Source: Candidatus Woesearchaeota archaeon (GTDB taxonomy: Archaea > Nanobdellota > Nanobdellia > Woesearchaeales > JACJVW01). From it: 64,000 nt of DNA. How positions within the stretch are numbered: position 1 is the first letter of the stretch; each line of letters opens with the position of its first letter. The stretch is taken from positions 433,060-497,059 of the forward strand of contig JACJVW010000001.1 of NCBI GenBank assembly GCA_020637435.1. The letters are read 5' to 3'. Below the pieces are notes generated by a model. That model made no database searches. It saw only the letters and a list, made by a program, of their open reading frames with translations, and was not told where the DNA came from. Position numbers and translations under genes: made by a program. Positions 6,025 to 50,000 of the stretch are shown piece by piece.

Positions 6025-6132
6025 AAGAAAAGAAAGAGTTCACAGATTTATATGCCTAACCGATGTCCAATGTAAAAGAGACAAAAAGGATATGGGTATC
6101 ATAGTCGACTCTGTGTTTGAAAAAAGAGAGAA

Positions 6133-8465: not shown

Positions 8466-8755
8466 TGAAGAAGTATCCAAAAATAGTGCAATGTGACAAG
8501 CGAGGTCAGATAGTCATACCTAAAGACCTCCGAAATGAGCTCGGCATAGAAGAAGGCACTGGTTTTTGGATGTATGCAATCACCGATGAAGGTATTCTGC
8601 TCAAGAAGGTCGAAAACCCTGAGCTTGGGGAACACACCGACATGCTCCATGAGCTCAATGACAAAGCAGACAAGATAGATCTCTCACGTGAGAATCTTGG
8701 ACAGTCCATCGAGGAATACAAGAAGAAGAGGCAGGGCAACCTGGATGTAATATGA
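8465..8755 (+). CDS. AbrB/SpoVT/MazE-family swapped-hairpin DNA-binding protein (96 aa)
   Basis: KRGQIVIPKDLRNELGIEEGTGFWMY is the AbrB-type N-terminal beta-barrel motif, followed by an acidic C-terminal tail. Its stop overlaps the giant ORF start by 4 nt (ATGA at 8752-8755). Confidence 0.75.
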   Translation: MKKYPKIVQCDKRGQIVIPKDLRNELGIEEGTGFWMYAITDEGILLKKVENPELGEHTDMLHELNDKADKIDLSRENLGQSIEEYKKKRQGNLDVI

Positions 8756-11700
8756 GGGGGCGCACGATACTTGGTTGGTGTATGATACTTTTCGTGCTAG
8801 CTTTAAGCCTCAGCGCTTCTGCCCAGGAGCTTACTCACACCCAAGTCGAGATCGGCAAACCGGTCACCTGGAAGAAAGTCGTTTCAGACGTACCTGCAGA
8901 CGGCACGCTCAATGTCTATGTTGACAAAGATGCCCGGGACGTCAGAGTGGATGGAAGATCTGACATCACTATCAAAGAAGCTTCGATATGGGACACCTTC
9001 GTCCAAAGCTTTGGCTCAGTGACAGGTTTTGCAGTAAGCGAAGCAGGTACTGAGATCGAGTTTGAAGCGAAAGAAGGTGACGCATACACTATTGTCTACG
9101 AAACAGAAGCACCTAAAGTCTACGAATCACAAAAACAAAAGGACGATAAGCTCATCAAAGAGGTAACCATCTCCTCAGACTATCATTATACTGACATCCT
9201 TAGTTACACAGACATTCCGGAAGTGGAAGCAGAGCAAATCAAACTCTACCATAAACAGGGTGGCATCTTCTTCAAAAATAAAATAGACATCACTTCCGAT
9301 GAATCTTACCGGGTAGAATTCATGGATACCAACGGCAATGGACTTATTGACCGTGTAAAATGGGTAACGCCCCACCTTTCCACCCAGGAATTCGAAGTGG
9401 AAATCACAGTCCTTAACGTTCAGAGCTATCCGCTCATAGGTGGCAACTGGACTATCCGGTTTACTACCGCAGGTACCGCAGACCTCGCTATAAGTGCCTA
9501 CATGGGTACAACCTATGGTGAGACGCTGCCGGATGACCTGTGGCCTATTGAACTTCGTTGCGATGATACTCCGTTGGCCCCTATCTTCAACGGAACTCAT
9601 GTCGTCTATGAGGACTTCTCCTGTGATGGTGTCGCCTACCACACAGTGAAGGTCCTCACAGGCGGTAAACATTACCAGGAATTGACCTTCGGCGATGCGA
9701 CAGCGCATGCACAAAACGATGCGGGCACCGTCACGCTCTCATTCCACCATGCGGCAGGATGTAGTGGCCCCTCCACGATAACATCCTCCTCACGGGCGAA
9801 TGAGAGTGATAGTATTTACATCCTGGTTTCTTATTCGAATGATGAGAACGGCGCTGAGAATACGATAGTGGACATTACAGGCTATGTATCTGGCTGTTCT
9901 CTGGCTTCACCCGGTAATTGCTTCGGCGATGACACGCCTGCTGCGAGCACATCATCCTGCTTCCTAAGCAATTTCCCCATTCCAACAGGCCTGAGTGATT
10001 CTGAATCTGTTACAGTATCTGTCCAGAATAGCACTGGTTCCGTTGCAACAACATCCTCTACGCTCTATATCAATCATGCCCCAGGTGTCGCGGTCGCAAT
10101 CACCCCTGCAAGTCCCCTCATAGGTGAGCAGATCACTTGCACCGGAACCGTAACAGACACGGATGCAGGAGACTCTTTTACAGCAAGCTATCTCTTCGAT
10201 GTGATGGGTTCAATTGTCGACAGCGGCAGTGTGGTCTGTTCAGGAACAACCTGTACCGCCACCTGGACTTCCTCAGGGGTCAATGATGGCGACACCATAA
10301 CCTGCAATATGACGGCAATGGACAGTAATGGACTTACTAGTCCTCAGGTCGCGTCATCTGCTGCCACATTCACCACAATAAGCATCAGTCCAACTTCAGC
10401 AAGTATAGAACGTATGGGTACGCAGACCTTCACGGTCTCTGGTAGTACAGCAACTCCTTTTACCTGGAACCTTTCGGGAACTCCCGTGAATGGTTCAGCA
10501 TTCAATCCCGCAAACCCTACTACCTCGTCTGCGACAGTACAGGGACTGGAAGTGGGTTCCTATGTAGTTAATGTAACTGACAACAACGGTGCATGGACCA
10601 CAGCCACATTGACTGTCACTGACACGAACGCTCCAGCGCCTGCAACGAATGTTGTCGCGGCCGACACTCCTGGCGACCAGGGGGATAATATCACGATAAC
10701 CTGGAGCATCTCTACCGATGACGGCCAGGGAGACAATGATGTAGCCAACTATTCTGTCCTAAGGTCGACCAGCCCTACATCAGGATTTGCTGCCGTTTCT
10801 GGAGCGCTTCCCCCAGGCACAGAGATTTTTGTCGACACAACAGTCCTCCCTGATGTCAGCTATTATTACCGGGTCAGGACCATGGACATCAGTGGCAATT
10901 TTGTCGATTCTGATATCTCCGGACCTGTCAATCTCAACGGCCAGCCCATCATGCAGGAGATAATCTATTACCCGTTAAGTCCGTCTGCCCAGGATAATAT
11001 AACCTTTGTAGCATTCGCGACAGATACCGACAACGAGACGGTGACGATGAACTACACGGTAGAAGTCACTGCCTTTGACGGAGGTACTAACTATCAGGAA
11101 AGCGGAGAGGCCTGGTGCTTCTTCCTTGGTCACGGCATGAGTCAATATGGTACGACATATGCAGAGCCGACAACTGAATGTACGGTAACACTAGCATCCA
11201 GCCACTTCACCAAAGCGGACAAAGTGACTATCACTTTCACCCCTCATGACGGACAGGAGGCAGGAGACCCGCTCTCGCTAAATGGATTCATCGTTATCAA
11301 CAACAGCAGGCCAAACGCATCCAATGTATTTGTCTCGCCGATAAATCCTAACCAGTCCTCTGTGCTCAGCTGTAATTATACGTTCACCGACTTCGATGGA
11401 GACATGGAGAATACGTCCCAGGCTCGTTTCAGATGGTACATCAATAATGAAGGACTCAACGACTTTGTACTTGTGCCTGGCTACACCAGCCGGACAATTT
11501 CAGGAATCTTCGACAAAGACGACATTATCAAATGTGCAGTACAGGTCAAAGACATTGATTCCAGTTGGTTAAAACAACCTCTATACGCATCCGCATATGC
11601 TACATCAACAGAGATCACAATAAAAGACAATGCGATCCCTCAGATCATAGATTACTGGATCTCTGCAAATAACACTAACCCTGCGGCACCAGGAGATGAC

Positions 11701-14700
11701 ATCTACTTCAATGTAAGCTGGGTCGACTACGAAGACCCAAGCGACCAGGCTAGGATGTACGTCTGTGACGCATGGGAAGATATTGAGAATCAGTACGATG
11801 GTGGAACCTCTGAGATCTTCTTTGGTGATGATACAGCAAATGCTGATCAAGAAGTAAGACTCTATACGAACGAGACTGGCCAGTACGTCTACACCCTGGC
11901 AATCAAACCTACAAAATTCATCGAAAACTCCTTTACTACATACAGTCCAGGCTCCACCGTCACCGCAGGAGATGTCTTCGTAGGCTCAGCACTCCTCGAC
12001 TTCCCTCCTTATTACACTTATTATGATGCTGACCACAGCGACACATATACCCTCGGTGAGTCCATTATATGGGATAATCAGTCCATGGGAACGAACAAGA
12101 CATACAACGCGCAATACGACGTAGTCATCTACGGTGATGAAGTGGTTGATGGCAGTTCTCTAGTCAGGTTCAACGAGAGCAATATCCACACCTTTTATGA
12201 CTCAGACAGCAGCGGGACTTACACTACAGGAGATGACATCTACCTTGACAGCGGTGCAACCCCTAATCAGGTTGATGCAGGCGATGTAAGGGTAAGTATA
12301 GTCTCCAACCGGCCCTCTGCGGAGACACTTTCAACCTCCTTCATTTACGACATCATCGTCCGTGAAGTGGACAATATCGGTGATACGACCGGTCTAGTCA
12401 TAGCAAGGGACAATGACAATACCTTCACCCTTGGAAAATACAACTATTTTGTCCCGCAGTATAATGCTCAACCACTTCCTGGAAAATATCTCATGTTCAC
12501 CATCTGCATAGATGTTGATAACGACGATACTTGCGACTCAGATTCGGACAATTTCAATGATATGGTCTTTTTCAAAGCAGATCCCGCACCAGGAGCAGGT
12601 TATCAGGCGTACAATGGAACGGGCTCAGTGCACTACAACCCGGATATCAGGTTCAACTATGGTGCAAGCGAAAGCCCAGGTTGTGCGGGAGCAACCTACT
12701 GCAGCACTCCCAATTCTCCTCTCAACGATATTTCCTGCACCTATGAAGCGGTCTTCGAAAATTCGTGGAACAACACAGTCAATCTCAAGGTCTGTGATGA
12801 GCACGATGCTTGCTCTGTCAACAGAGTAGCAAACTTCTTTGTGAATCACATCCCTATAATTTCAGATCTTACCATAAACAGCAGTATAGACGGTGTCAAT
12901 ATTGACGCAGTCAATAATTTCAGCACTAGCAGGAACCTTATATGTAATTACACTGCTTCAGACAGTGACCCGCAAGGCAATACTATCGGCTTAAGCAGCG
13001 TCATCTGGTTTAAGAAAAGCCAGAGCGCAAGTGTCTTCCAGCGTGCGATAGTCCCAAACAGCACTTTACTCGCGAACAGTAATACCGAACCAGGAGACCA
13101 GTGGATCTGCCAGATCACGGTGCATGATGATTTTGATAATTCGCTAGGGACCAACTCATCTCCTGTAACGATCCTAAGTGCGCAGGGTGACGAACTGACC
13201 ATCCTATCAGTTTTTGATGATTCCTCCTTGACCGCACCTGTACTGTTGGATGAAGACGTTACCATCGAGGTCTCCTTCCTCTACACGGGAACCGATGATG
13301 TCAAAGTCTATGTCTGCAACTCTTCGTCCATAACCTCGGGTGGCTGCCTTGATCACACCTACGCAGCCACGGATTTCGTCTCGGACAACCCGATCAATGT
13401 AAGCTGGGAGGCAGATGCTCCTGGAACACACAGATACTACGTCAAGGTCTGTGATGAGTCATTCAGATGTTCAGCGGTGGTAGGGACGTCTACTGAATAC
13501 AATTACACCGTCAATCAGCGTCCTATTGTCAACTCAACGCTCCTTACGACGTATACTGGTTCGACCAACTACACAGACGCTGACCCCCTCAACTGTACCT
13601 ACATAGGCAACGACCAGGATAGCATAGGTACGGGACTAAACGCGACCTACACCTGGTTCCTCAGAAGATCAGGAGGGGCGTTCCAAAAGATTGCATTACC
13701 TCCGACAACCGCAACGATCGCAGAATCACAGACTATTCTCGGCGATGTATGGATCTGCCAGGTTGACCTTTCAGATGGTTACCATAGCGCGGATGCGCTC
13801 AACAGCAGCCCCGCATTCATTCAGAGCCTAAGTACGGGAATTATCGGCATAACTGATGTGAACGATACAGTAGGCAGTGTCGTTGAGCTCGGAGATTCCA
13901 TCGACATCGACGTCTACTGGCAGTCTGCTACCGGCGATAACGCAAAGGCATTTATCTGCAATTCCACGAGAGTGCTCGCAAGCGGTTGTCTTGATGGTAC
14001 CATTATGGAGACGAGTTATACCTCAGCAAATCCTATCTCTGCATCCATCACTCCGACAATAGGGGGGTTGCAGTATTATTATGCCATGGTCTGTGATACC
14101 TCCTGGAACTGCTCATATGTCCAAAGCTTTGACAGCAAAGGCAATAGGTTGAATTACACGGCAAACACCCCCCCTGTCATCGGATATGTTACCGTCAACA
14201 CGACTACTGACGGACTTACCCCGGACGGTCTGCAGAATTACACGGTGGACACACACCTGATCTGCAATTTCTCCATCTCGGACCCGGACATGCTTTCTGA
14301 ACCAAGTTTTGAGATTGCATGGTACAAAAATGGCCAGAAAGTAAATTTCCCTTCAGTCACTGCGATTTCAAAATGGAATACGCAGGGAGGCGAACTATGG
14401 AGTTGTGGGGTCACTCCTATAGACGAATACGGAACTTATCCGGAAATGATTTCACAAAGTGTATTCATCACGGGCATCTCTAATGAAATTGTAGTAGTTG
14501 AGAATATCACTGCTAACTACAATGAGAGCAACCCTCTACTCAATGGACAAGCTGTAACCTTCAACCTAAAGGCGATGAGCCTCAACAGCGTCTCCTGGTT
14601 CGCATACATATGTAATACCTCAAACATAGACGTCACAGGCTGCTGGGATGACCAATTCGCAACAATATCGACTGCAACAGAGGAATCCACAGCATCCTAC

Positions 14701-17700
14701 ACCACAGTCTACGAAGATCACGGAGTGATACCTTATTATGTACTGATCTGTGATACCACGTTCAACTGTTCACAGGTACAGGGAGTTGACACTGCCCTTA
14801 ATTTCACGGTTAACCATCGCCCAGTCCTTACTTATGTGCGGTTGAACACGACAGATCTTACATCAAACTTCACCAGTGACCGCAATCTGATCTGTCAGTT
14901 ATCTTACAATGACCCTTACAGCTACAACAATGGCTACAACATTTCATACACATGGTACAGGAATGGCATCCTGCAGGCATACCCTAGTAGCATGGATGTG
15001 CTCTCCAACACACAGACACAGACGGACGATGAGTGGTACTGTGAAGCTCAGGTCAGCGACGGCTATCATTCAAGTGATGTGGTTGCCGCGGCATTTGTCA
15101 ATATCAGTGACTACGCGCCAGGTTCCGTCTGGATAACGAACTTGACGACAAACAGTAATTCCAGCTCTTACCTCAGGTACCCTTCCAATGTTACCTTTAA
15201 TATTACCTGGAACTCGACAGAGATTCTTGATGTGCGGGCATTTATCTGCAGCAATAGCAGTATCGGCCCTTCTGGATGTCTCCAGACTACTATCGCCCAA
15301 AGCGGATACACCCGCAGTAATCCGATAGAATTGACCTACCTAACAACCAATAATGAATCAGGACCTACTGACTACTATGTGAAGCTCTGTGACACCTCCT
15401 TCAATTGTTCAGGAGTCGCAGGCATTAGTATACCTCAATACTACTACATCAATCAACCCCCTATTGAGACCGCTGTCTGGATGAACACGACAGACGGAAC
15501 AGACAATTTCACCAGTGACAGGAACATCATCTGTAGATATACTGCTATGGACCGGGACGATGTAAATGCGAGCGACCCACTTATACCTGAATATTATTGG
15601 TGGGTGGGATCTACCGATGACAATATGGAGTTGGTGGAAACAAGCACAAGCACACAAGTACTGACAAACAACAACTATGAACCTGGTTACTATGTACAAT
15701 GCGGCGTTCGCACTTCCGATGGGATGCACTTTGGAGACGGAACTTTCAGCCAGGCACAACAGATAAGCACCGAAGTAGTAGAAGGGATAGTTATCTCAAA
15801 TGTCACCCACAACTCGCCAACAGAGACGCCGGTGACCGAAGGCAACGTTATCCTATTCTCCATCGACTGGTACAGCAGCTACGGCCTTCCTGTAAGAGCA
15901 CACATCTGCAGCTCACCAGACTTCAACTACAGTGGCTGCTATAACACTACTCTTGCTGCATCAGGTGGTTTCTCAAGCACAAACCCGCTCATAGTAAGCA
16001 TGGCCACTAATGGATCGGAGCCGACCATACAGAACTACTGGGCAAGGATCTGTGACAACAGTTACAACTGTTCAGAGCCGTTCCCTGAAGCAGGAATAAA
16101 TCTGAATGTATCCGTCAACCACCGACCTAATGCGGTGAATGTGACTGTCAGACAATTTGATCAGTACAGTACTACGGGATTGCTCATCTGCAACTACTCT
16201 TTTAATGACACGGATATGGACCCGGAGAACGCAACTTTAGCTACATTCCTCTGGTACACAGTAACCAACAGCGTCAAATCCCTTATACCAGGACAGAACG
16301 AAAGGTTCCTCGAGGACGCGTTCAGTTATGGAGATGAGATAACCTGTAGCGCAAGAGTCGCAGACAACCATTCAGTCAGCGACAATCAGTTCAGAGATGC
16401 CAATAATACCATAAGATTCAGCGCGATACCACCTAAACCCGTCCTTTGGAATATGCCCTTTGCAGTATCTGCAGCAACAGGTAATAGGATGATAGGGTAT
16501 TTCGGTATACCTAACGTCAATTACTCAGTCCACCTGCGGCAGGAATTCAATGTGACAACGCCCGTCACCAACACAACCTCTACGGATAGCAGGTACTTCG
16601 GTTTCGCTTTCCCGGTCTACAAGGCTGCCAATAAATCTGCGTTCGTCATAGTTCACCGCGACGATCTTGACCTGTTCCAGACTGGAAGATACATCTCCTA
16701 CGACAACCATAACCGGACATACTTTGCACGATACAGGATAACAGGCAACGAAGATCTCTTCGACGATACTTACAAGGTATTTACTTCGCCTGCACTGGAG
16801 CACAATATTACCTCCTCGACCGCGATTTTCGTCTACAACAGTACCTATCCTTCAGGATGGTTCAATATGTCATTGCCATCCTTATTCGTAGGTGAAAATA
16901 CCATCAGGATCAGGGGACTGTCATCCTATGGCAATGGACCTTACCTGAATCAGACCCTCTACCTTGATCTGGAGAACCCGACCATAAACATATCCAAAAT
17001 AGGCAACTACAGTTTCAGCCACATGTCGACCATCTACTGGTCCGTCTATGACAATATCTCCCTTAAAGACATGCTCCTCCAGGTTTCTAACAGTTCAGAA
17101 ATAGTCAACTACACACTCTACGATTACAACTTCAATGACACTGACACTCAGATAGTCTGCGATGGCAATCTGACAGACCAGGACTGCCGGGTGGAGATCT
17201 ACCTCAATAATAATACCCTGCACAACCTCACATTCACAGTCACTGACAGTTCAGGAAGAAGCACGACTGAAGTACGCTATGACTACGTCGTCAATACCTC
17301 AGTGCTCCCGGTCATACTTGTCTACCAGGGTTTCATAGATGATGCTCTTGACGAGCACATCCCCGCGACCATCGCTACCAATACAACATTCACCGCAAAC
17401 TGGACCTCTGATGCACATGCCATAACACGTTACTACGAAGTCAAGATAGTAGAATATGAAGGAGACCTTCTTGTCAAAGACATGACCAACTGGACTGAAG
17501 TTGGCAAAGAGAGAAATTGGACTGCGACCGTGCCTGCACGAAACCAGTATATCTACAAATTCCATGTAAGGTCTCTATACCAGGATCTAAGCTACAGCGA
17601 AGAATTTGTCAGTGAGGGCATGTTTTATTTCGTGGATGAAGCTCCGGTCTGCATTGATTGTGTCAGATTTGTAGGCACAGATAACGGCGGGCAGACATTC

Positions 17701-20700
17701 ACAAATTCACCAGACACCATGAAAGTGGCTTGGAACTTCACAAGCGAAGCTCCTATAACTCGCTACAGGTACGCGATAGGAAAAGTAAAGTACCCTTCGC
17801 CTGGCTACAACTCTCATGCGTACAGCAACGACTATCTCAATGATGAGATAACGATAATTAAGACCATGACCGAAGGTGATCAGTATTACGCCGCTGTCAG
17901 AGCGATGAACGAGAATGGCATCTGGAGCCCCTGGTCAATAACCTTGGGCAATCTTACCGTTGACTTGACAGCTCCACAGGGTGGTTCAATAACATACCCA
18001 ACAGGATTGGTCTCTACAAACTTCTCGGTATCCTACAACGACGGGTATGACGACATCAGCGGAATTAAGTCAAGAGTACTCTATCGTGCTACCGCTCAGT
18101 TGATCAATGGGCAGTGCCAGGGATTGTATGTCTACTACCCTGTCAACAGTACCATCATACCGGGGTCAGGAAGCTACACACAGGTCATAGGCAATGGTCT
18201 TTGTTATCGGTACAAGTACATGGTCACAGACTATGTGAACAACACAGCATCATACTTCAAGGGAGAACCGTACGATGTGAAGACAGACACTACCCCTCCC
18301 AATAGTTTCAGTGTCGTCCTGAACAATGGATATTACATCACCTCATCATCAACCTTCACCGTTGACTGGACAGACAGCGCAGATGCACAGTCAGGACTCT
18401 CTCATTACAGCTACATCATCACTGAGGATGACAAGCAGATAGGCAACTGGACTAACATTACAGTTGGCAACACAACAGTGACATTTGCTCAGGTAACCCT
18501 GCCAGATCCGAGGCACCAGGCAAGCTACAGAGTTATCGTAGTTGCTCACAGCAGGAACGGTCTGACGACCCAAGTCACAAGCAATGCTGTCGCATACATA
18601 GATATTGCACCTCCATCCCCTCTTGAGCTGCTGCAGTTTGAGAATCAGACAAATATCACTACTGATAATCTTGTTGATCAGGTGAACAACAATATGACCA
18701 ATATCACCTTCCGGGGTGAGAATGGTATCAGTTGTGTCGCTTCCGTCTACCCCATAGACTATGAGATGTACGATGTATCAAAAACATACCTGACTAACTG
18801 CTCAACGGCAAACGACAATGTAACATGCAGATTCAATACGACAGAGACAGCATACTACACAAGATACATCGTCTGCAGTGACTACGCAGGCAATATGCAA
18901 TTTGTAGATGATGCTCTCAATATTACTTGGAAAGTCGATTTCATAGGTCCTGACATCAATATGACGACCAGTATACAGGGCGAAGTGCTTGGCGAGATGA
19001 TTCTGTTCAACCTTAGTATTACAGACCTCACCGCTGTCGACACAGTCATCTATGAGATAGTAAACGCGACCAGCATGTCGCAGATATTTGACTCAGGTAA
19101 ACTGACCGGTGATGAGATTTACAGCCTACTGTGGAACAGCACTGAATACTTCGCAGGTCAGACCGAACTGCTTACTATCATAATTACAGCAAATGACACA
19201 AATGGTTTCATCCAGAAATTGTTCACAAACTTCACAGTCGATAACACAAGACCTGTCATCAATATTGTCAGTCCTAATCTCAACAACAGATTCTTCAACC
19301 AGAATTTCACGCTTGATGTGCGGGTAAGAAATCCCTTCTACAACACCTCGCTTGGGATCTACAGTATGAATGGCACAAAGATGCATAGCCTGTATAATGT
19401 AAGCAATGTGCTCAGATCAAGCTATGATTATGCAGGACTTGTCGCAACAGACAGCTGGCCTGATGGAAACTACACCATAAGGGTTAATGCTTCAGGAGTA
19501 AGCAATTCCATGAATAAGAGTCTGACCATATATCTTGACAGGACCGCACCATCTCACCTCCCTATTGTCAATCCAAAAGGTCCCGTCTACAATGATGCCT
19601 CAGTGCTCCTTTGGTCGTATTGGCCTATAGAATACAACTTTGTGGCTAACACCTGCGACATAGAAGAAGTACTTATCCAGCACAATGCTACCGGCACCAT
19701 GACCAACTATACAGTAGGGGCTACAGGCTACAATTTCAGTGTAATCATACCGCCTAGCCAGTTAGACAATCACGAGCAGATAGCATGGCTTGTGCATGCA
19801 AAAGATTTCAGCGGAAACTGGAACACAACTGAGCTAAAGACATTCACAGTATCCAACAGGGCTCCCTATCTGTCTCTGGTAATACCTGACCAGGACTGGC
19901 CCGTCAACATCAACAATTCTCCTGTTGAAGCAGCAATACATCTTATCGACCCCGACCAGGACACTCTTACTTTCAGCATCATCCAGCTTCCCGAGAAATC
20001 AAAGATATATGATGAATTGAACAATCCTTCGACCATAAGTGCGAATGACGGTGAATATGATGCGGTAACCTTCCTTGTGGCAAAGAACGCCAACGGAACT
20101 GCGCTTGAAAAGGCGACGACCAACATGCTTGGCAACCCTACATTTGAAGAGGGCAATATGACCTATTTGAATTCCTGGCAGGTCGTAGGTGAACCGCAGA
20201 AGAACTGGACGCTCAATATTGAAGGTAACTACAGTGTTATTGTCAATAGGAATCACTACTACATGCAGACTGTGCCGGTAACCCCTAACACAGAATACAC
20301 CTTGAGCGCGACCATGAGGTCAGTCAGTGGTACTACTCACGGCAGATTGCATGTTGATTGGCTCGATAGCACCCAGCAATACCTCGGTACCTGCCTCATC
20401 TGTGGGCTAGGTAATACTTGTGCCTTTACGCCTGAATTAACCGTGACACCGGAAAGAAAGTCTGCAAATATGACCAGTCCTTCCGGTGCGGTGTACGCTA
20501 GGATCTATGTTGACGCACAGAACAGCAGTTATACTGTAGTAGATGATATGCAATTCGAGAAAAGTAGCTTCGCTACATCCTTCGTCAATGGATCCAGAGC
20601 TGCAACATATATCGAGTATGATATTAGTTCGCACTACAATGATTCAGCGGGAACGATAGGATTCTGGTTCAGACCTTTCTGGAATACCTCATCAGATGAA

Positions 20701-23700
20701 GACCATCTGCTGCTGCAGATGTCAGCGGATTTCGCATTGTATGCTACCAAAGAAGAGAATGACTACATGCTCAGGCTAGGCGATTCCTCTACGTATACAG
20801 AAATGAATATTACTGGCTGGAATACTGATGACTGGCACTACCTGACTATAACTTATGCATCGACCATATCATGGCTCTATGTTGACGGAAATCTTATAGG
20901 AAGTTCATACAGCGATCCGAACAGTGTTACTACGTTGTATCTTGGTAAAGCCGCATCAGATTCCATCTACGCTAACGGAATATTCGACGATCTCATCTTC
21001 ATAGGAAAGACCTATAACGCGACACAGGTCCTACAGCTCAACACGAGCGGACCTGTGCTTTCATCTCCTAACATCAATTATACGATGAACTCCAGTAACG
21101 CAGTCATTTTCTATTCCTTCGACTACAACTGGTCCGGCAGTGAAGCCGCGTACATAACTGCAGATGATGGTTACGCTATTGCGGGAAGCAACGTCTTTGG
21201 ACTGACCGTCAATCCGCTCAATATAGCACCCGTCATAGCCCCTATTCCAAACCAGACTACTTGGGACAATCAGACGTGGTCCTATACGATAAACGCGACA
21301 GACGCAGACAACCATCCTCTCACCTACGTGGTAAATGCGAGCTGGATCGAGATCAACGAGAGCGGATACATGACATTCAATCAGTCACCTCTACTTAGAG
21401 GCCACTATGGTTTGAAGCTGACGGTCTGCGATAACCAGGATGAGATCAATAGCTGTGTCAATCAGACTTTTAATCTCACGATACTCTATACAGACATGGA
21501 CAGCGATGGAATCTCAGACACCTTTGATTTCATCACAGGCAATGAGACAGGAATAGTCACAAATATACCGATCACGATGATAATCGTGAACTCCAGCTAT
21601 TTCGACAATTCGACTAACACCACTTTCTTCCTTCCTGGTTCGACCAATATTAGCCAGTATTACGGAGGACTGGTGCACATTACTCTCAAGAACAGTAGCC
21701 ATGACTTTGTGGACTTTGATTTCATACTCAATGCAACATCCATCCTTGATCTCGGCAGCATAGTTATTGAAGTGAATAATGCGAACATGAGCGCGATAAG
21801 CGTAAGTGGCCTGATACTTCCAGTAAATATGACCAAGGCAGTACATCTGCAGAAGTATAACACTACCATCATGTCTGTATGCATCAAAGATAATGCGACC
21901 ACCAATATATCAGCAATATCAGTCAACTGCACCGCAGCCGATGAGATTCTCGTGCCTTGCGACAACCAGAACTATTCAGGTTACTTCTGCGAAGACAGGA
22001 ATACCACCTACAGAGTCTCTGGTCTCAACCATTCCGCAGTAAAAGAGCAGGCTGGCTGCACAGACAAAGACGGAGACGGCTACTTCTTTGGAAGTCTGTG
22101 CATAAGTTCGCCGTTGGATTGTCAGGATACTGATCAGAACAGATACCCTGGAGCTACTGATATCTGTGGAAACGGAATCGATGAAGATTGTTCAGGCGCT
22201 GACAAGAAGTGCTCAAGTAGCAGTTCAGGCGGAGGAGGGGGCGGAAGCCGGGGCGGAAGCTCAGGTTTCATCTCAAATAAGAAACAGTGCGAAGATGGCA
22301 AAGACAATGATGGAGACGGTCTTATCGACTTGCAGGACAACGGTTGCACAAAAGAGACAGATGACGATGAGAGCGACGAATGTGTCGAGAACTGGGTCTG
22401 TGGAAACTGGAATCTTTGTGTCGACGGAAAACAGACCAGATCCTGCTATGACACAAGTGAATGCAATACCTACTATGTCAGGCCGCACATGCTGCAGAGC
22501 TGTGAATACACGCCAAAAGTGATTGAGAAAGAGGTCACCTCATGTACTGATTATTCACAGAACTATGGAGAGACAGACGTAGACTGTGGCGGAGACTGCA
22601 AAGCATGCGGACTAGGCAAGAAATGCCTCTCAAATATTGACTGCGACTCTGGTTATTGTGATAGCCTGACCAAAATATGTTCAGAGCTGCTTACGGAACC
22701 TGTCCTGCCTACCTGTTCAGACATGATACAAAACCAAGGGGAAGAAGATGTTGATTGTGGTGGACCATGTGATTCCTGCAAGACTGAAAGTGCATTCTTC
22801 CAGTGGATACTCATGTTCGTCGTAGTGCTCGGTCTTCTCGGTATAGTCGCGGGAATCGCTCTGGCCGGACTGGAAAGCCGCCCAAGAAAAGAAGAACCCT
22901 TCACTGCTGAATCCCTCAAAGCGGCAGCTGAGGATACGGAAGGAAGGATATTCCTTGAATACTACAAAGGCACAGACAAAGAAAAGATCCTTCGCATAGG
23001 CAAAGCCCTTGGCATACCGAAGAAGAGAGTTGAAGACATACTGCACCTCTCCGAGTATGCCCTGCTCATGCTCAAAAGAGGTATAAGTAAAGATGTTATT
23101 GAGAGCAAACTGCTTTCAAGAGGCTGGCCAAAAGAACTCATCGAGCTCTTCTTCATCCACAACTTCATATTCAATGACCTTATGAAGAATAAGTCTATCA
23201 TCTACAAGAAGATAGAAGACAAACGTGCTGAAGGAAAGAGTGATGAGCTGATCGCCATCGAACTTAAAGAGGAAGGGTGGCCGGAAGACGTGGTCACCAT
23301 GGCTTTACTCTTTGAAGAGCATAAAGACACTCCAAAGGAACAGCCTGCGGAAGACCTGGTAGCGGATGAAATGAGCATCCTGCTGGAATTGCATAAGGGA
23401 GCTACACCGGCATCGATCAAATCGATGCTTGCTGAAAAGGGCTGGAAACCCGAAATCATCGACTCTCTTGCAAAACTTGAAGAATCCATAAGGTTGCCGC
23501 TCTCCCGCGGTACAGAACCGGATGAGATAATCAGACAGTTCACCTCCCAGGGTTGGCCTATGGAACTCATCGAGTTTGAGATACTCCTGCAGGATATCGA
23601 AATACGTGTACTTCATGCGATGAAGAACAATATTCCTGTTGAGCAGCTCATCCAGAGTCTGAAAAAAGAAGGTTATCCGGAGAATATGGTCAGGGAAGTC

Positions 23701-23988
23701 CTACAAGCCCATAGAGACACGGACCTGCAGCAGCCAAAACAGGACGAACATATTGTCGCGCTCGAACAGATCTTCCGACTCCTTAAGGAAGGGAAGACCG
23801 CTCAGGAGATTTCTGACTACGCCCAGAAGAAACGATGGCCGAAGAACATTATGTACCAGGCAATAAACACTGAGAAGTATATCAAAGAGATGCGATCGAA
23901 GGGAAATTCAGACGAGAGCATCAGGTTTGAGCTAAAGAAGATGGGTTGGCCCGAAGACCTCAGCGAAAAACTTCTAAGACAGGTCTGA
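8752..23988 (+). CDS. Giant secreted surface protein (5078 aa). It has a signal peptide, an N-terminal module shared with giant 2, Ig-like domains, about 7 tandem ~215-aa Cys-containing repeats, a CBM-like domain, a LamG/ConA-like domain, a cadherin-like domain, MopE-type Cys-rich metal-binding motifs, a Gly/Ser linker, one TM helix, and a cytoplasmic tail of 7 GWP repeats
   Basis: Single uninterrupted ORF. The signal peptide is MRGRTILGWCMILFVLALSLSASA. Repeated ICNYTASDSDP...GDQWICQITVHDD units alternate with YYVKVCDESFRCSAV units between roughly 11.3 and 16.2 kb. GNPTFEEGNMTYLNSWQVVG is CBM-like. WHYLTITYASTISWLYVDGNLIG...FDDLIFIG is LamG-like. IAPVIAPIPNQTTWDNQTWSYTINATDADNHPLTYVV is a cadherin/dystroglycan-type domain. 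CQDTDQNRYPGATDICGNGIDEDCSG is MopE-like. A SSSSGGGGGGSRGGSSG linker precedes the TM helix FFQWILMFVVVLGLLGIVAGIALAGL and a 380-aa cytoplasmic repeat tail. N-x-S/T sequons are extremely frequent. Confidence 0.9.
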   Translation: MRGRTILGWCMILFVLALSLSASAQELTHTQVEIGKPVTWKKVVSDVPADGTLNVYVDKDARDVRVDGRSDITIKEASIWDTFVQSFGSVTGFAVSEAGTEIEFEAKEGDAYTIVYETEAPKVYESQKQKDDKLIKEVTISSDYHYTDILSYTDIPEVEAEQIKLYHKQGGIFFKNKIDITSDESYRVEFMDTNGNGLIDRVKWVTPHLSTQEFEVEITVLNVQSYPLIGGNWTIRFTTAGTADLAISAYMGTTYGETLPDDLWPIELRCDDTPLAPIFNGTHVVYEDFSCDGVAYHTVKVLTGGKHYQELTFGDATAHAQNDAGTVTLSFHHAAGCSGPSTITSSSRANESDSIYILVSYSNDENGAENTIVDITGYVSGCSLASPGNCFGDDTPAASTSSCFLSNFPIPTGLSDSESVTVSVQNSTGSVATTSSTLYINHAPGVAVAITPASPLIGEQITCTGTVTDTDAGDSFTASYLFDVMGSIVDSGSVVCSGTTCTATWTSSGVNDGDTITCNMTAMDSNGLTSPQVASSAATFTTISISPTSASIERMGTQTFTVSGSTATPFTWNLSGTPVNGSAFNPANPTTSSATVQGLEVGSYVVNVTDNNGAWTTATLTVTDTNAPAPATNVVAADTPGDQGDNITITWSISTDDGQGDNDVANYSVLRSTSPTSGFAAVSGALPPGTEIFVDTTVLPDVSYYYRVRTMDISGNFVDSDISGPVNLNGQPIMQEIIYYPLSPSAQDNITFVAFATDTDNETVTMNYTVEVTAFDGGTNYQESGEAWCFFLGHGMSQYGTTYAEPTTECTVTLASSHFTKADKVTITFTPHDGQEAGDPLSLNGFIVINNSRPNASNVFVSPINPNQSSVLSCNYTFTDFDGDMENTSQARFRWYINNEGLNDFVLVPGYTSRTISGIFDKDDIIKCAVQVKDIDSSWLKQPLYASAYATSTEITIKDNAIPQIIDYWISANNTNPAAPGDDIYFNVSWVDYEDPSDQARMYVCDAWEDIENQYDGGTSEIFFGDDTANADQEVRLYTNETGQYVYTLAIKPTKFIENSFTTYSPGSTVTAGDVFVGSALLDFPPYYTYYDADHSDTYTLGESIIWDNQSMGTNKTYNAQYDVVIYGDEVVDGSSLVRFNESNIHTFYDSDSSGTYTTGDDIYLDSGATPNQVDAGDVRVSIVSNRPSAETLSTSFIYDIIVREVDNIGDTTGLVIARDNDNTFTLGKYNYFVPQYNAQPLPGKYLMFTICIDVDNDDTCDSDSDNFNDMVFFKADPAPGAGYQAYNGTGSVHYNPDIRFNYGASESPGCAGATYCSTPNSPLNDISCTYEAVFENSWNNTVNLKVCDEHDACSVNRVANFFVNHIPIISDLTINSSIDGVNIDAVNNFSTSRNLICNYTASDSDPQGNTIGLSSVIWFKKSQSASVFQRAIVPNSTLLANSNTEPGDQWICQITVHDDFDNSLGTNSSPVTILSAQGDELTILSVFDDSSLTAPVLLDEDVTIEVSFLYTGTDDVKVYVCNSSSITSGGCLDHTYAATDFVSDNPINVSWEADAPGTHRYYVKVCDESFRCSAVVGTSTEYNYTVNQRPIVNSTLLTTYTGSTNYTDADPLNCTYIGNDQDSIGTGLNATYTWFLRRSGGAFQKIALPPTTATIAESQTILGDVWICQVDLSDGYHSADALNSSPAFIQSLSTGIIGITDVNDTVGSVVELGDSIDIDVYWQSATGDNAKAFICNSTRVLASGCLDGTIMETSYTSANPISASITPTIGGLQYYYAMVCDTSWNCSYVQSFDSKGNRLNYTANTPPVIGYVTVNTTTDGLTPDGLQNYTVDTHLICNFSISDPDMLSEPSFEIAWYKNGQKVNFPSVTAISKWNTQGGELWSCGVTPIDEYGTYPEMISQSVFITGISNEIVVVENITANYNESNPLLNGQAVTFNLKAMSLNSVSWFAYICNTSNIDVTGCWDDQFATISTATEESTASYTTVYEDHGVIPYYVLICDTTFNCSQVQGVDTALNFTVNHRPVLTYVRLNTTDLTSNFTSDRNLICQLSYNDPYSYNNGYNISYTWYRNGILQAYPSSMDVLSNTQTQTDDEWYCEAQVSDGYHSSDVVAAAFVNISDYAPGSVWITNLTTNSNSSSYLRYPSNVTFNITWNSTEILDVRAFICSNSSIGPSGCLQTTIAQSGYTRSNPIELTYLTTNNESGPTDYYVKLCDTSFNCSGVAGISIPQYYYINQPPIETAVWMNTTDGTDNFTSDRNIICRYTAMDRDDVNASDPLIPEYYWWVGSTDDNMELVETSTSTQVLTNNNYEPGYYVQCGVRTSDGMHFGDGTFSQAQQISTEVVEGIVISNVTHNSPTETPVTEGNVILFSIDWYSSYGLPVRAHICSSPDFNYSGCYNTTLAASGGFSSTNPLIVSMATNGSEPTIQNYWARICDNSYNCSEPFPEAGINLNVSVNHRPNAVNVTVRQFDQYSTTGLLICNYSFNDTDMDPENATLATFLWYTVTNSVKSLIPGQNERFLEDAFSYGDEITCSARVADNHSVSDNQFRDANNTIRFSAIPPKPVLWNMPFAVSAATGNRMIGYFGIPNVNYSVHLRQEFNVTTPVTNTTSTDSRYFGFAFPVYKAANKSAFVIVHRDDLDLFQTGRYISYDNHNRTYFARYRITGNEDLFDDTYKVFTSPALEHNITSSTAIFVYNSTYPSGWFNMSLPSLFVGENTIRIRGLSSYGNGPYLNQTLYLDLENPTINISKIGNYSFSHMSTIYWSVYDNISLKDMLLQVSNSSEIVNYTLYDYNFNDTDTQIVCDGNLTDQDCRVEIYLNNNTLHNLTFTVTDSSGRSTTEVRYDYVVNTSVLPVILVYQGFIDDALDEHIPATIATNTTFTANWTSDAHAITRYYEVKIVEYEGDLLVKDMTNWTEVGKERNWTATVPARNQYIYKFHVRSLYQDLSYSEEFVSEGMFYFVDEAPVCIDCVRFVGTDNGGQTFTNSPDTMKVAWNFTSEAPITRYRYAIGKVKYPSPGYNSHAYSNDYLNDEITIIKTMTEGDQYYAAVRAMNENGIWSPWSITLGNLTVDLTAPQGGSITYPTGLVSTNFSVSYNDGYDDISGIKSRVLYRATAQLINGQCQGLYVYYPVNSTIIPGSGSYTQVIGNGLCYRYKYMVTDYVNNTASYFKGEPYDVKTDTTPPNSFSVVLNNGYYITSSSTFTVDWTDSADAQSGLSHYSYIITEDDKQIGNWTNITVGNTTVTFAQVTLPDPRHQASYRVIVVAHSRNGLTTQVTSNAVAYIDIAPPSPLELLQFENQTNITTDNLVDQVNNNMTNITFRGENGISCVASVYPIDYEMYDVSKTYLTNCSTANDNVTCRFNTTETAYYTRYIVCSDYAGNMQFVDDALNITWKVDFIGPDINMTTSIQGEVLGEMILFNLSITDLTAVDTVIYEIVNATSMSQIFDSGKLTGDEIYSLLWNSTEYFAGQTELLTIIITANDTNGFIQKLFTNFTVDNTRPVINIVSPNLNNRFFNQNFTLDVRVRNPFYNTSLGIYSMNGTKMHSLYNVSNVLRSSYDYAGLVATDSWPDGNYTIRVNASGVSNSMNKSLTIYLDRTAPSHLPIVNPKGPVYNDASVLLWSYWPIEYNFVANTCDIEEVLIQHNATGTMTNYTVGATGYNFSVIIPPSQLDNHEQIAWLVHAKDFSGNWNTTELKTFTVSNRAPYLSLVIPDQDWPVNINNSPVEAAIHLIDPDQDTLTFSIIQLPEKSKIYDELNNPSTISANDGEYDAVTFLVAKNANGTALEKATTNMLGNPTFEEGNMTYLNSWQVVGEPQKNWTLNIEGNYSVIVNRNHYYMQTVPVTPNTEYTLSATMRSVSGTTHGRLHVDWLDSTQQYLGTCLICGLGNTCAFTPELTVTPERKSANMTSPSGAVYARIYVDAQNSSYTVVDDMQFEKSSFATSFVNGSRAATYIEYDISSHYNDSAGTIGFWFRPFWNTSSDEDHLLLQMSADFALYATKEENDYMLRLGDSSTYTEMNITGWNTDDWHYLTITYASTISWLYVDGNLIGSSYSDPNSVTTLYLGKAASDSIYANGIFDDLIFIGKTYNATQVLQLNTSGPVLSSPNINYTMNSSNAVIFYSFDYNWSGSEAAYITADDGYAIAGSNVFGLTVNPLNIAPVIAPIPNQTTWDNQTWSYTINATDADNHPLTYVVNASWIEINESGYMTFNQSPLLRGHYGLKLTVCDNQDEINSCVNQTFNLTILYTDMDSDGISDTFDFITGNETGIVTNIPITMIIVNSSYFDNSTNTTFFLPGSTNISQYYGGLVHITLKNSSHDFVDFDFILNATSILDLGSIVIEVNNANMSAISVSGLILPVNMTKAVHLQKYNTTIMSVCIKDNATTNISAISVNCTAADEILVPCDNQNYSGYFCEDRNTTYRVSGLNHSAVKEQAGCTDKDGDGYFFGSLCISSPLDCQDTDQNRYPGATDICGNGIDEDCSGADKKCSSSSSGGGGGGSRGGSSGFISNKKQCEDGKDNDGDGLIDLQDNGCTKETDDDESDECVENWVCGNWNLCVDGKQTRSCYDTSECNTYYVRPHMLQSCEYTPKVIEKEVTSCTDYSQNYGETDVDCGGDCKACGLGKKCLSNIDCDSGYCDSLTKICSELLTEPVLPTCSDMIQNQGEEDVDCGGPCDSCKTESAFFQWILMFVVVLGLLGIVAGIALAGLESRPRKEEPFTAESLKAAAEDTEGRIFLEYYKGTDKEKILRIGKALGIPKKRVEDILHLSEYALLMLKRGISKDVIESKLLSRGWPKELIELFFIHNFIFNDLMKNKSIIYKKIEDKRAEGKSDELIAIELKEEGWPEDVVTMALLFEEHKDTPKEQPAEDLVADEMSILLELHKGATPASIKSMLAEKGWKPEIIDSLAKLEESIRLPLSRGTEPDEIIRQFTSQGWPMELIEFEILLQDIEIRVLHAMKNNIPVEQLIQSLKKEGYPENMVREVLQAHRDTDLQQPKQDEHIVALEQIFRLLKEGKTAQEISDYAQKKRWPKNIMYQAINTEKYIKEMRSKGNSDESIRFELKKMGWPEDLSEKLLRQV

Positions 23989-24015: not shown

Positions 24016-24321
24016 CTAATCAAACTTTCTAGCGGTATATAGACCAAGGTATAAGACTAGAAGCAGTGCGAAACCGTACACAGCCGTTTGTGATCTGTAT
24101 TCTTCTGGTTTCTCTGTCGTTTTGACCTTCTCCAGACAAAGTTCGACAGGTTCACATGCGTGCCCGTCATCCATAGAGCAGCACACTGCACCATACGCAC
24201 AGTCAGCATCAGATGTGCAGACACAGTCCTCACAACCGACAACTAGCCCGGTTATCGAACCGCTCAGCAAGTACGCAACAACCATAAGCGCACCAAACCA
24301 TCCTATCCAGAATGCCTTCAT
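24016..24321 (-). CDS. Small Cys-rich membrane protein (101 aa) with an N-terminal TM or signal helix, a CxxC/CC-rich ectodomain and a C-terminal TM helix
   Basis: MKAFWIGWFGALMVVAYLLSGSI... CEDCVCTSDADCAYGAVCCSMDDGHACEPVELC ...AVYGFALLLVLYLGLY. The gene is convergent with the giant gene and a TATA-like taatattatta lies upstream. Confidence 0.5.
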   Translation of the reverse strand: MKAFWIGWFGALMVVAYLLSGSITGLVVGCEDCVCTSDADCAYGAVCCSMDDGHACEPVELCLEKVKTTEKPEEYRSQTAVYGFALLLVLYLGLYTARKFD

Positions 24322-46450: not shown

Positions 46451-47008
46451 ATGGGAGAAATCAGCTACCTGGAAGAAGCTACAATAAAGAGAGTCATAAC
46501 TAGTGTCCAGAACTCCCGCGACCAGCTGATGATACTCCTTCTCTACGAACTTGGATGCAGCCTCAAGGAATTGCTCAACATCAGGCTCAGAGACATTGAT
46601 CTTGAAAAAGAACAGATTTCTATCACTTCCACATCCGGTACGAGCAGACAAGTCAGAGACAGCCTGATTAGCGCTCCCACAAAGGAACGTATAAGAAACT
46701 ATATAAACGCCAATAACCTTGAAAATCGTAAGACCGCATACCTGTTTACATCCTCCCACAACAGGCAGATGACCTTGCGAAGAGCGACCCAGATTCTCTC
46801 TTCTTCATTGGAATCACAGGGCTTAGGAGACCTTAGTCCGCAAGTGATAAAATATTCACATATTGTGAACGCCTACCGGAGAAATGTACCCATCAGTCTT
46901 ATAAGAGAACAGGTAGGTCTGACCAAAGAAAGACTCATTTCGATCCTATTGAGTATTGATGAGCCGAACGTCGGTTCGTACAAAGAGTTCCTGGAGGGGG
47001 TGCTCTGA
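46451..47008 (+). CDS. Tyrosine-recombinase (phage-integrase family) catalytic-domain-only protein, 185 aa, without a core-binding N-domain. The canonical C-terminal Tyr is not at the expected spacing
   Basis: Colinear with the XerC/D catalytic domain: RDQLMILLLYELGCSLKELLNIRLRDIDLEKEQISI (Arg-I region), KTAYLFTSSHNRQMTLRRATQIL, and LSPQVIKYSHIVNAYRR (HxxR region, with K in place of the first R). In LGHxxxxTTxxYTH the Tyr is replaced by LISILLSI. The stop overlaps the ATG of giant gene 2 by 1 nt. Confidence 0.55.
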   Translation: MGEISYLEEATIKRVITSVQNSRDQLMILLLYELGCSLKELLNIRLRDIDLEKEQISITSTSGTSRQVRDSLISAPTKERIRNYINANNLENRKTAYLFTSSHNRQMTLRRATQILSSSLESQGLGDLSPQVIKYSHIVNAYRRNVPISLIREQVGLTKERLISILLSIDEPNVGSYKEFLEGVL

Positions 47009-50000
47009 TGCGAAAAAGAGGTAACAATAAGACCCTCACGGTCATTTTGTTAGCTTTGCTTCTGACGATATTCACTATTTCTGCAGCTCCAAACATTGAC
47101 ATCAGGATCGACATGGCCACGGAGAACCGAAGCGTCGGCGATACTGTCCAGATAGGCATCTCCACCTACATCAATAATGTCATTGTACTTTCTTTGCCCG
47201 CCAAGGTATTCATCTCAGGCCCGGAAGGCTCATCCGAACTGGCGACCAGCGATACATTCAGAGGATTGCGCATAGGAAACTTCACTCCAACCCGTGCAGG
47301 AACATATACCATCACGGCCCAGGTCATCATCAATGGCCAACCGTATGAACAGTCAGACGAGGTCGAAGTGGCACAGCCACCTTATGCGTTCACCACAGAA
47401 TACCTGGTGAACGGTACTCTGCTACAGGCTCATATCACACAACCTGCAGACCGCACAGTAAGGATAAATCTGATCAGGGAATCGCAGATAATACCTTTAT
47501 GTGAAGCCGAGTGTGCCGCTGACTGCACATTTTCCTGCCCGCTCCCAGAACTAGACAGTGCCATCATACACCTGCAGACGCAGATTGACGCAGAACCGTA
47601 CCTCTACAGCACAACAGATATCGTAACTGCAGCTATGAAGAGTATCGAATGTGAATTCGTCGCCCCGAAATACGGACTCTACACAACAATACAACTCCCA
47701 CAAGAAGACCTTCTCGAAGCCTACATCACTGGCGACCGAACAGAGCAGATAACTGATGGAACGTTTACGACAGACGCACCCGGTGCATACACCCTAATGA
47801 TGCTGTATCTACAGGACAACACAACTGTTTCCTGCAGCAAGGACTTCACGGTCAGCGCTGACGGTGACGAAGCTCGTCTAAACTTGATCGATGACTATTT
47901 TGATCCTATCTACGCAAAGACCTATACCCTCTATAATATCGAAAAAGAAGGACATGCAAACATCTGCGATGAAGCATGGTATATTGATGATACAACGGTA
48001 CAGACCATCTCGTTTCCGGCCAACCTCTCCAGAGGTCAGCTCCTCTGCAAATCAGCTCCTGCCAATATGAGCAAGGCCGATGCTGAAACGTATGTAACCT
48101 TCCTTCGAAGCGGAGCCGCGACATTCTTCAACGTAGGCTTCAGCTCATTTGAATCGTACGCCTACATCCTCAAAGACTCAGTTGCGAAGGAGATACTTGG
48201 CCCCTACAACAAGACCATACATACGCAGAACTTCACCACCATAATCGGTCCGCCTGCTCTGTATGCGGTAGTGCACAAGAATATGGCAGAGTCGGAAACT
48301 GACTTAAGCGTGGGACCGGTACTGGTCATCCCAATGGAAGAGAATGCTTCCATAAGCTACATCAATGGCACTACCCTATTCATCCGGGAAAAGACAGCCC
48401 TGCAAAGAGAAGACATCTTCCAAAGCCAGGGAGTAAGATTTGTCCAAGAGTTGCAGCTAAAACCAAGGGAAGACACCATCACAGAGACAGACAAGCAGAT
48501 ACTCAGTGATGCGCAGACGATCGAACTCATCAGTCCAGAACTAAAGAAGATACATCTGCCCGCAGGCATCATACCCAAGGAGACTCCTCATGGCATGTAC
48601 ATGCTTCACGAGATCTTCTATGGCAACGCAAGCAGAGTAAGCAGGATAACTATCATAGGGACTGAAGCCAATCTGAGCATCAGCGAAGGCAAACAGAAGA
48701 ACGCGACAAAAGGCGATACAGTAAGATTCGTACATACGATCGTCAACTCGATAAGGGACGGTTCAGCCATCATTGAGGTGCAGATAGGAGACACTGCTGC
48801 GCAGGTAAGCGTAAACGTCATCGAAGGATCCATCGAAGTCCCCATCACTGATACGAACAACAACGGCATACCTGACTTAGGCATCATGTTGCCAGGAGAG
48901 GATAAAGAGATCCTGATTACAGCCATCGTCCCTAAGAATGCAAGCGCAGGAAATCACACTATCCCTATCACTGTGCAAGACCTGCAGCGAAGCATTGGAA
49001 ACACGGTCTATGATCTCATCCACGTAGAAGCTGACCTCTTCGAACCAGTCTACAGCAACGACCTTGACCTCTACGCTATCGAAGAGCATGAAGGACAATT
49101 GCAGATCCTTATTCAGAATAATTTCATGGATGAAAAAGAGGCTCAATTGACGTTGCACATAGGCAACAATAGCATTGTCGAGAATATAATCGTCCCAAAA
49201 GACAGCACATTCATGTTCACTTATCCTGTCGAGGATCTCTCCTCCAATGAGAAGATCGAAGCGGTGCTGACTGCATTTGGCGAATCGAACAAGAACAACA
49301 ACCAAAGAACATTCCTGCGTGCTCAGAGATGGACAGAAGACAGAAGTTATAGGAAGACATTGTACCTCACTGAGAAAGAGCATCAGGACCATGAACAGTA
49401 CAGATTCCGTGCATCTGCAGCTCGTGACGGCATGGATCTCTCATCCATCCGCCTTACCTACGCAACAGACACAACAGAAGGTATAGGTTATGCGTATCCA
49501 CTATTTTCTATCACCGCATACGATGAGAAGCAGGTCGACCTCATCATAGAGTTGAGTATGCTACCCAAGAACACGGTAGTTCCGTTATACATCTATTACG
49601 ATAAATCCGAAGCATCAATCCCCCCAAATACAAGCGCTCACCTGCCAGAGATCATCATCGACAACACCAATCGTACGGTGCAGATGAATGGGAGATGGGG
49701 TTCCGACTACGTCTCAAGAGAATACTATGGTTCAGGTTATCTTCATGATTTCGCAAGAGGCAAAGGAGAAAAATCTGTCATCTATGGCTTACAGGTACCT
49801 AAGTCCGACTATGAAGTCTACATGACGTATCCGACAGACCCTACGTTCTCAAAGCATGTACCTGTCTCAATAACAGGCACAGAGGGTACCCAGACTATCT
49901 ATATTGATCAAGACAGACGTCCACAGGATTGGACTTACCTTGGAGTATATGCCCTTGACAGCAACAGTCAGATTACTATCTCAAACGCAAAGACAGAAGG

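Follow-up and report, generated by a model that had tools for sequence, protein, structure and literature searches.

The prime candidates for the attachment of DPANN archaea to the host cells on which they live are their very large surface proteins. Among described protein modules, the sorting signals of the PGF-CTERM/archaeosortase and LPXTG/sortase type are cleaved elements at the very C-terminal end, composed of a short motif, a transmembrane (TM) helix and a handful of basic residues; RecX is a soluble bacterial protein (~150-270 aa) that is made of three ~50-aa repeats and acts on RecA. Here we analyse a 64,000-nt stretch of a Candidatus Woesearchaeota archaeon genome (GenBank assembly GCA_020637435.1, contig JACJVW010000001.1, positions 433,060 to 497,059 of the forward strand; the whole stretch is hereafter called the window), in which an open reading frame (ORF; 8752..23988, +) encodes giant protein 1, a Woesearchaeota (DPANN) surface protein of 5078 aa, and we centre on the repeats in the tail that follows its single TM helix. 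As a whole protein it finds its closest analogue in the SPEARE giant proteins of Nanohaloarchaeota (Hamm et al. 2019; PMC6642349), which are likewise DPANN giants, mostly extracytoplasmic, with LamG/adhesion domains, a TM helix near the C-terminus and a conserved cytoplasmic part, the latter holding type III restriction-enzyme-like domains.

Giant protein 1 has the layout of a SPEARE protein (signal peptide, 4655-aa ectodomain with a Laminin_G_3 match of 30.7 bits in Pfam, one TM helix and a 371-aa tail), but neither its ectodomain nor its tail yielded a type III restriction-enzyme-like or serine protease domain in the Pfam searches, nor any other protease or nuclease domain, and its tail differs from the SPEARE intracellular part in being an apparently non-enzymatic array of helical repeats. 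With the sorting signals this tail shares the placement of one C-terminal module behind many unrelated ectodomains within a lineage; in contrast to them, its family carries 70-600 aa of folded repeats past the TM helix, and giant protein 1 has no PGF motif before the helix and its whole tail after it.

A tandem repeat array behind the membrane helix

An earlier reading of the DNA, made without database searches (the sequence-only reading), had described in this tail seven ~45-aa repeats built around an invariant G-W-P motif. All seven strings that it quoted are present, and the tail is confirmed as a genuine tandem array of seven clear copies and one degenerate copy (unit 0) of a ~33-40 aa helical domain (Table 1). 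In a leave-one-out test (a hidden Markov model, HMM, made from the remaining units and scored on the held-out unit and on 1000 shuffles of it) the seven units reached 8.3-33.4 bits, with shuffle maxima of 5-14 bits and 0 of 1000 shuffles matching the real score. An independent family HMM, whose 113 units all stem from other proteins and which contains no sequence from the window, likewise found seven units in the tail (12-43 bits each, full-sequence E 1.8e-60). Unit 0, which lies upstream of the first unit of the sequence-only reading, is borderline in the leave-one-out test and was not recovered by this family HMM; it is collinear with a similarly degenerate unit in the homologue P0041. Across the seven units the G-W residues or their equivalents lie 51, 55, 37, 43, 51 and 37 aa apart (mean ~46). 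The motif itself is variable: GWP occurs in four units, and the others have GWK, GYP and RWP (GIP in unit 0). An upstream signature, [KR]G-x-[ST]-x-[DE]-x-I, was also said to precede each copy; it stands as a consensus and fails as a rule, being exact in 2 of the 7 units. The tail, put at 380 aa, measures 371 aa. The six-frame translation of the window holds no further copy of the repeat, and within the tail there is no tandem repeat at the DNA level (the codons of GGNTGGCC alone recur), so that the duplications must be ancient.

As the tail is rich in a few helix-favouring residues (K 11%, E 13.5%, L 11%, I 9%), the periodicity might be thought a chance product of a low-complexity helical region, or the region might be untranslated. 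We give this next to no credence: composition-preserving shuffles never equalled the real scores of the seven units, the family profile recovered the array independently, and an exhaustive search (see below) found homologous tails in many other proteins; by these results the artefact is refuted. Moreover, all 5078 codons of the ORF read through without a break, and gene calling picked it up in both the NCBI and the Logan (SRR12358676) assemblies.

That the tail is cytoplasmic, as the sequence-only reading had it, is well supported by sequence features. The protein begins with a signal-peptide-like segment, N-x-S/T sequons number 174 in the ectodomain (3.7 per 100 aa) against one in the tail, and cysteines 100 against none, and K/R residues are enriched on the C-terminal side of the TM helix, a bias that recurs throughout the family described in the following section.

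An uncurated domain family of DPANN surface proteins

The tail sequence alone found no relative in the GTDB species genomes, and word-indexed homology searches with the tail, with the 8-unit alignment and with the 113-unit alignment gave essentially nothing (a single 63-aa match for the last of them). When the 8-unit profile was run exhaustively with HMMER against 1.84 billion cluster representatives, 262 proteins were retrieved at E<=1e-3, 17 of them at E<=1e-10. The layout was tabulated for the top 150 of these 262 representatives. In 96 of the 150 a TM helix is followed by C-terminal repeats (1-9 units, ending a median of 5 aa before the stop), and 58 of these 96 proteins have an N-terminal signal-like segment; in 6 the repeats are N-terminal, ahead of one or more TM helices, and no signal peptide is present; 42 have no TM helix (many are short, and some, such as P0006, are fragments of longer cluster members); the remaining 6 have other layouts. 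Across the 96 proteins of the first layout the K+R count within the 15 residues flanking the TM helix averages 3.41 on the tail side and 1.76 on the outside, being higher on the tail side in 65 proteins and lower in 12. The median gap from the TM helix to the first unit is 36.5 aa in the family; in giant protein 1 unit 1 begins 60 aa past the helix.

The ectodomains ahead of these tails are mutually unrelated (S8 peptidase, PGF-pre-PGF, NEW3, FN3, LamG and parallel beta-helix). Closer homologues of giant protein 1 (P0041, P0021, P0074, P0013, P0107 and P0057) have the ectodomain, the Cys-rich stalk and the TM helix in common with it, and their tails hold from 2 to 8 units, that of P0041 being collinear with units 0-5. 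All six also keep, in one to several copies, the membrane-proximal Cys-rich module (C-x-D-x-x-Q-N-x-G-E-x-D-V-D-C-G-G-x-C-x-x-C), which in giant protein 1 has no Pfam match. The named family members that were looked up are all DPANN (Woesearchaeota, Nanoarchaeia or simply 'archaeon', with Pacearchaeota among the GTDB genomes); one member of a 90% cluster bears a Peregrinibacteria label and is probably mis-binned, and the search results include a few bacterial matches, for example a high-GC membrane protein (P0037) and a true RecX (P0079).

Taken together, these observations define an uncurated domain family that occurs mainly as a cytoplasmic C-terminal module of DPANN archaea, behind the single TM helix of otherwise unrelated surface proteins. 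Giant protein 1 belongs to this family, since a profile that contains no window sequence recovers its units and since its array adjoins the TM helix. The repeat was not described in the literature that we consulted on DPANN/Woesearchaeota giant and surface proteins, cytoplasmic tails and RecX-like transmembrane proteins. Two sets of matches were set aside. A Streptomyces locus (L008, 5263..6159, +) was a false positive of a pattern scan, encoding a UbiE-like methyltransferase that merely contains KLQEAGW, and the DUF732, Colicin_E5, Cation_ATPase_N, EnY2 and similar matches in family members are sums of weak scores in which no stretch is significant.

The consensus of 223 units from other proteins reads Y-[IV]-x3-L-x2-G-x-[ST]-x3-I-x3-L-x3-G-W-[P]-x3-[VI]-x3-[LFI], with conserved positions Y5, I/V6, L10, G13, I19, L23, G27, W28, V/I33 and L/F/I37, among which G13, I19, L23, G27 and W28 are ~90% conserved. 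Each of these positions belongs either to the hydrophobic core or to a turn; the surface positions are K/E-rich and variable.

Predicted fold and relation to RecX

The AlphaFold2 (AF2) model made from the single tail sequence is all-helical (21 helices; mean predicted local distance difference test score, pLDDT, 73.6; predicted template modelling score, pTM, 0.46), in line with the helical repeat scaffold anticipated by the sequence-only reading, and is disordered solely at the juxtamembrane start and in linkers at tail residues 150-162 and 282-289. When units 3-5 were modelled with a small pseudo-alignment made of the tail's own units, the scores were higher (pLDDT 83.8, pTM 0.71), and 10-residue helices alternated with helices of 18-22 residues. 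On these models each unit would open with helix 1, pass through a K-G turn into helix 2 (10 residues) and end, after the G-W-P turn, with helix 3. At a spacing of 37 aa helix 3 would merge with the first helix of the unit that follows, and the result would be an unbroken zig-zag rod.

Searches of the PDB with the tail sequence and with profiles found no natural relative, and returned designed helical proteins and marginal UBA matches only. With UBA-like and other three-helix bundles (UBA, RepB_primase_C, designed HHH) the unit shares its size, the three-helix layout and weak profile matches (designed HHH_rd4_0518, E 4e-6; Cbl UBA, E 0.07); however, no natural UBA match is significant, and neither the G-W-P signature nor the fusion of helix 3 with helix 1 is a UBA feature.

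The likeness to RecX (Pfam RecX_HTH1/2/3, with PF21982 and PF02631; COG2137; PDB 3C1D, 3DFG, 3D5L) goes somewhat further. Both consist of tandem short helical units, and a pattern common to the two (hydrophobic helix, [KR]-G-x-[ST/G], x-x-I/L-x3-L, x3-G, third helix) gives weak matches in both directions. The tail scores 29.7 bits against Pfam RecX_HTH1 (whole-protein cut-off 26; E 6.4e-7), a sum of sub-threshold matches in which no single stretch is significant, and other family members score up to 48 bits, likewise by summation. When the 113 family units were scanned singly (E<=0.01), RecX_HTH1 was the commonest Pfam match (15 units), ahead of RepB_primase_C (9) and RecX_HTH2 (3). In hhalign the family profile aligned over 37 columns with repeat 2 of E. 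coli RecX (probability 71%, E 3.7e-5; the RecX sequence was verified against PDB 3C1D), and the repeat profile itself had retrieved the true RecX P0079. The repeat may thus be called RecX-like at the level of motifs, and is possibly a distant homologue of RecX. The sequence-only reading had recognised no named repeat family here, which holds insofar as the repeat has no curated family of its own and no HMM search assigned it with confidence to a known one (the RecX match being too weak for that), and has to be amended insofar as the Pfam and hhalign matches, and one annotation in circulation, point weakly to RecX. The annotation in question is that of P0170 (1906 aa, in the 90% cluster of P0031), a DPANN surface protein labelled 'SOS response regulatory protein OraA/RecX' by JGI; the label evidently stems from the tail repeats, and such mis-annotation is likely to be systematic for the family.

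Giant protein 1 is not a RecX. On the tail the RecX equivalogs of NCBIfam reach 23.5 and 17.4 bits, against cut-offs of 217 and 237; the architecture is wrong, with 7-8 repeats at 37-55 aa spacing, tethered to the TM helix of a 5078-aa surface protein, in place of three ~50-aa repeats in a small soluble protein; and so are the host and the context, which are not those of a bacterium with a RecA partner and recA-recX linkage but of an archaeon (Topo VI A/B, RIO and KH genes nearby), the Pfam scan of neighbouring genes having shown neither recA nor radA. Foldseek gives no support either, matching RecX at E 2.6 with the full tail and not within the top 50 with the three-unit model. Furthermore, the near-invariant G-W turn of the tail family is missing from the aligned RecX repeat, and the tail is acidic.

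The tail might nevertheless act in the manner of RecX or of a helix-turn-helix (HTH) protein, binding DNA or a RadA filament and so tethering the handling of nucleic acids to the site of host contact. Besides the RecX_HTH1, hhalign and P0079 matches just given, this has a precedent in the DNA-directed cytoplasmic parts of SPEARE giant proteins (PMC6642349). We consider it quite improbable, because the charge is of the wrong kind (between -7 and +3 per tail unit and -10 in total, at an isoelectric point of 5.5; family units are near neutral, averaging +0.8 ± 2.9) and because helix 3, which occupies the place of an HTH recognition helix, is mostly D/E at positions 30, 31 and 34 throughout the family. 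The summed nature of the Pfam score, the failure of Foldseek to recover RecX, the want of recA/radA among the scanned neighbours and the extracellular unit of one subfamily (see below) also speak against it. A bolder version would make the shared tail a lineage-wide docking code, in which the RecX-like repeats bind one cytoplasmic machine; RecX itself and the nuclease inside SPEARE proteins, taken as analogues, suggest the RadA/DNA-handling apparatus as the most interesting candidate. Were this conjecture true, sites of host contact would be linked physically to the take-up or processing of host-derived DNA or other cargo; we regard it as very improbable.

What the array may do

We do not think that the tail is an enzyme or a DNA-binding RecX. 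The reading that we favour, and to which we give about an even chance, is that the RecX-like helical array is a cytoplasmic tail module of DPANN archaea acting as a sub-membrane anchoring and organising scaffold. The array would form an elongated, highly charged helical rod beneath the membrane, and this rod would serve as a common module holding in place the single-pass anchors of surface proteins that are very large and bear load; repeated weak protein-protein contacts (self-association, or contacts with one common partner) could retain or cluster the proteins by avidity. Four points taken together, namely conservation confined to the core, freely varying copy number, unconstrained charge and an acidic recognition-helix position, speak against both DNA binding and one conserved surface for docking, and favour a structural role as a rigid sub-membrane rod with a function in anchoring and perhaps clustering.

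The same points bear on the proposal of the sequence-only reading that the tail is an adaptor platform, coupling surface binding to cytoskeletal or signalling proteins, a part comparable to that of integrin and cadherin tails. A cytoplasmic tail of modular repeats would suit such a part, and the recurrence of the same tail behind many ectodomains suggests one shared intracellular interaction. On the other hand, no conserved surface patch was seen, the copy number is free among the homologues, no kinase, cytoskeletal or signalling gene is linked to the protein in the window, and the unit also occurs outside the membrane. The coupling thus finds no positive support, and we hold it to be unlikely.

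Core-only conservation with variable copy number and surface charge would equally suit a passive topogenic or mechanical stopper, a stable folded mass with no partner at all that would keep the TM helix in its orientation and prevent it from being pulled through; in keeping with this, most carriers of the module are large extracellular proteins anchored by one TM helix. Against this, many members are small with two units, or are multi-pass, so that a stopper would be needless there, and a generic stopper would not require so specific and so widely conserved a domain. We therefore regard the stopper as improbable on the whole, with the reservation that it overlaps with the scaffold and that computation cannot separate the two.

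Several observations weigh against the scaffold. In a Pacearchaeota/Woesearchaeota subfamily (P0106, P0111, P0137, P0075 and P0099; loci L002-L007, with the match at ~6001-6130, where the ORFs end) one unit lies ~10 aa before the TM helix, hence on the extracellular side after a Cys-rich ectodomain, and one lies inside, the latter being near-identical across species (YPELTSYIKDALAAGATKQEI.AKLQEAGWPK.AIEASFK). It follows that the domain is not intrinsically cytoplasmic and that a single, strictly cytoplasmic partner cannot explain all cases; judging from this arrangement, the domain appears to be an autonomous membrane-proximal module able to work on either face. Moreover, Foldseek found no significant structural relative for the full-tail or the three-unit model, which leaves the fold class dependent on AF2 models from very shallow alignments. 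The genes next to giant protein 1 are of the housekeeping kind (RIO kinase, Dim2-like KH protein, Topo VI A and B, ProRS-type) and offer no functional clue and no hint of a partner or of self-association; the function is inferred from the pattern of conservation and the architecture.

The giant gene and its surroundings

Giant protein 1 is the same protein as NCBI MCB9362274.1, which is annotated as 'hypothetical protein, Candidatus Woesearchaeota archaeon'. Its start codon is ambiguous, lying at 8752 in the Logan call and the ORF model (5078 aa) and 10 codons downstream, at 8782, in the NCBI record (5068 aa); the signal-peptide-like N-terminus is retained under either. In the stalk region a Ser/Gly low-complexity stretch, SSSSSGGGGGGSRGGSSG (22213-22266, +), is preceded by a MopE-like putative metal-binding motif (Pfam PF11617, 32.3 bits; ~nt 22063-22200).

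Table 1. Features of giant protein 1 and units of its tail array (nucleotide positions in the window)
Feature	Position	Strand	Remarks
Signal-peptide-like N-terminal segment MRGRTILGWCMILFVLALSLSASAQ	8752..8826	+	read from translation
Extracellular region, ~4655 aa	8827..22794	+	weak LamG, CBM_4_9, Big_9 and MopE-like Pfam matches
Two membrane-proximal Cys-rich modules, outside the TM helix	22543-22608 and 22714-22779	+	conserved in homologues
Single TM helix FFQWILMFVVVLGLLGIVAGIALAGL, aa 4682-4707	22795..22872	+	ESRPRKEE directly after, fits the positive-inside rule
Tail, 371 aa	22873-23985	+	
Juxtamembrane linker of tail	22873..22941	+	first 9 residues pLDDT <50 in AF2 model
Unit 0, degenerate (…YYKGTDKEKILRIGKALGIPKKRVEDIL…)	22942..23052	+	leave-one-out 5.5 bits, 5/1000 shuffles as good
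Unit 1 KRGISKDVIESKLLSRGWPKELIELFF	23053..23166	+	leave-one-out 30.1 bits; family HMM 40.4 bits
Unit 2 AEGKSDELIAIELKEEGWPEDVVTMALLF	23197..23322	+	leave-one-out 25.2 bits; family HMM 28.3 bits
Unit 3 HKGATPASIKSMLAEKGWKPEIIDSLAKL	23368..23484	+	leave-one-out 16.4 bits; family HMM 29.8 bits
Unit 4 SRGTEPDEIIRQFTSQGWPMELIEFEILL	23485..23598	+	leave-one-out 25.8 bits; family HMM 26.8 bits
Unit 5 KNNIPVEQLIQSLKKEGYPENMVREVLQA	23599..23718	+	leave-one-out 9.0 bits; family HMM 26.8 bits
Unit 6 KEGKTAQEISDYAQKKRWPKNIMYQAINT	23761..23871	+	leave-one-out 8.3 bits; family HMM 12.0 bits
Unit 7 SKGNSDESIRFELKKMGWPEDLSEKLLRQV, reaches the C-terminus	23872..23985	+	leave-one-out 33.4 bits; family HMM 43.4 bits

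Downstream of the giant gene, a 101-aa ORF on the opposite strand (24016..24321, -) starts 28 nt past its stop; it is a gene call in Logan and has no Pfam match on record. A second giant ORF (46963..64000, +; at least 5664 aa) continues beyond the end of the window, and its likeness to giant protein 1 is confined to ~370 aa at 29% identity.

Implications

What is new here is the membrane-tethered archaeal setting of a RecX-like helical repeat, together with an uncurated DPANN domain family; this is the description of a domain family and holds no mechanistic surprise. The domain is compact and searchable, is carried by no fewer than 262 cluster representatives and is a marker for the intracellular end of numerous surface proteins of Woesearchaeota, Pacearchaeota and Nanoarchaeia. 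Current domain databases register the domain merely as a faint echo of RecX, and one pipeline mislabels a member as RecX. A dedicated profile would fix such annotations, flag the surface-protein repertoires of DPANN archaea and give a bait for components of the sub-membrane contact site, and a specific partner, if found, would raise the interest of the family beyond the correction of annotations.

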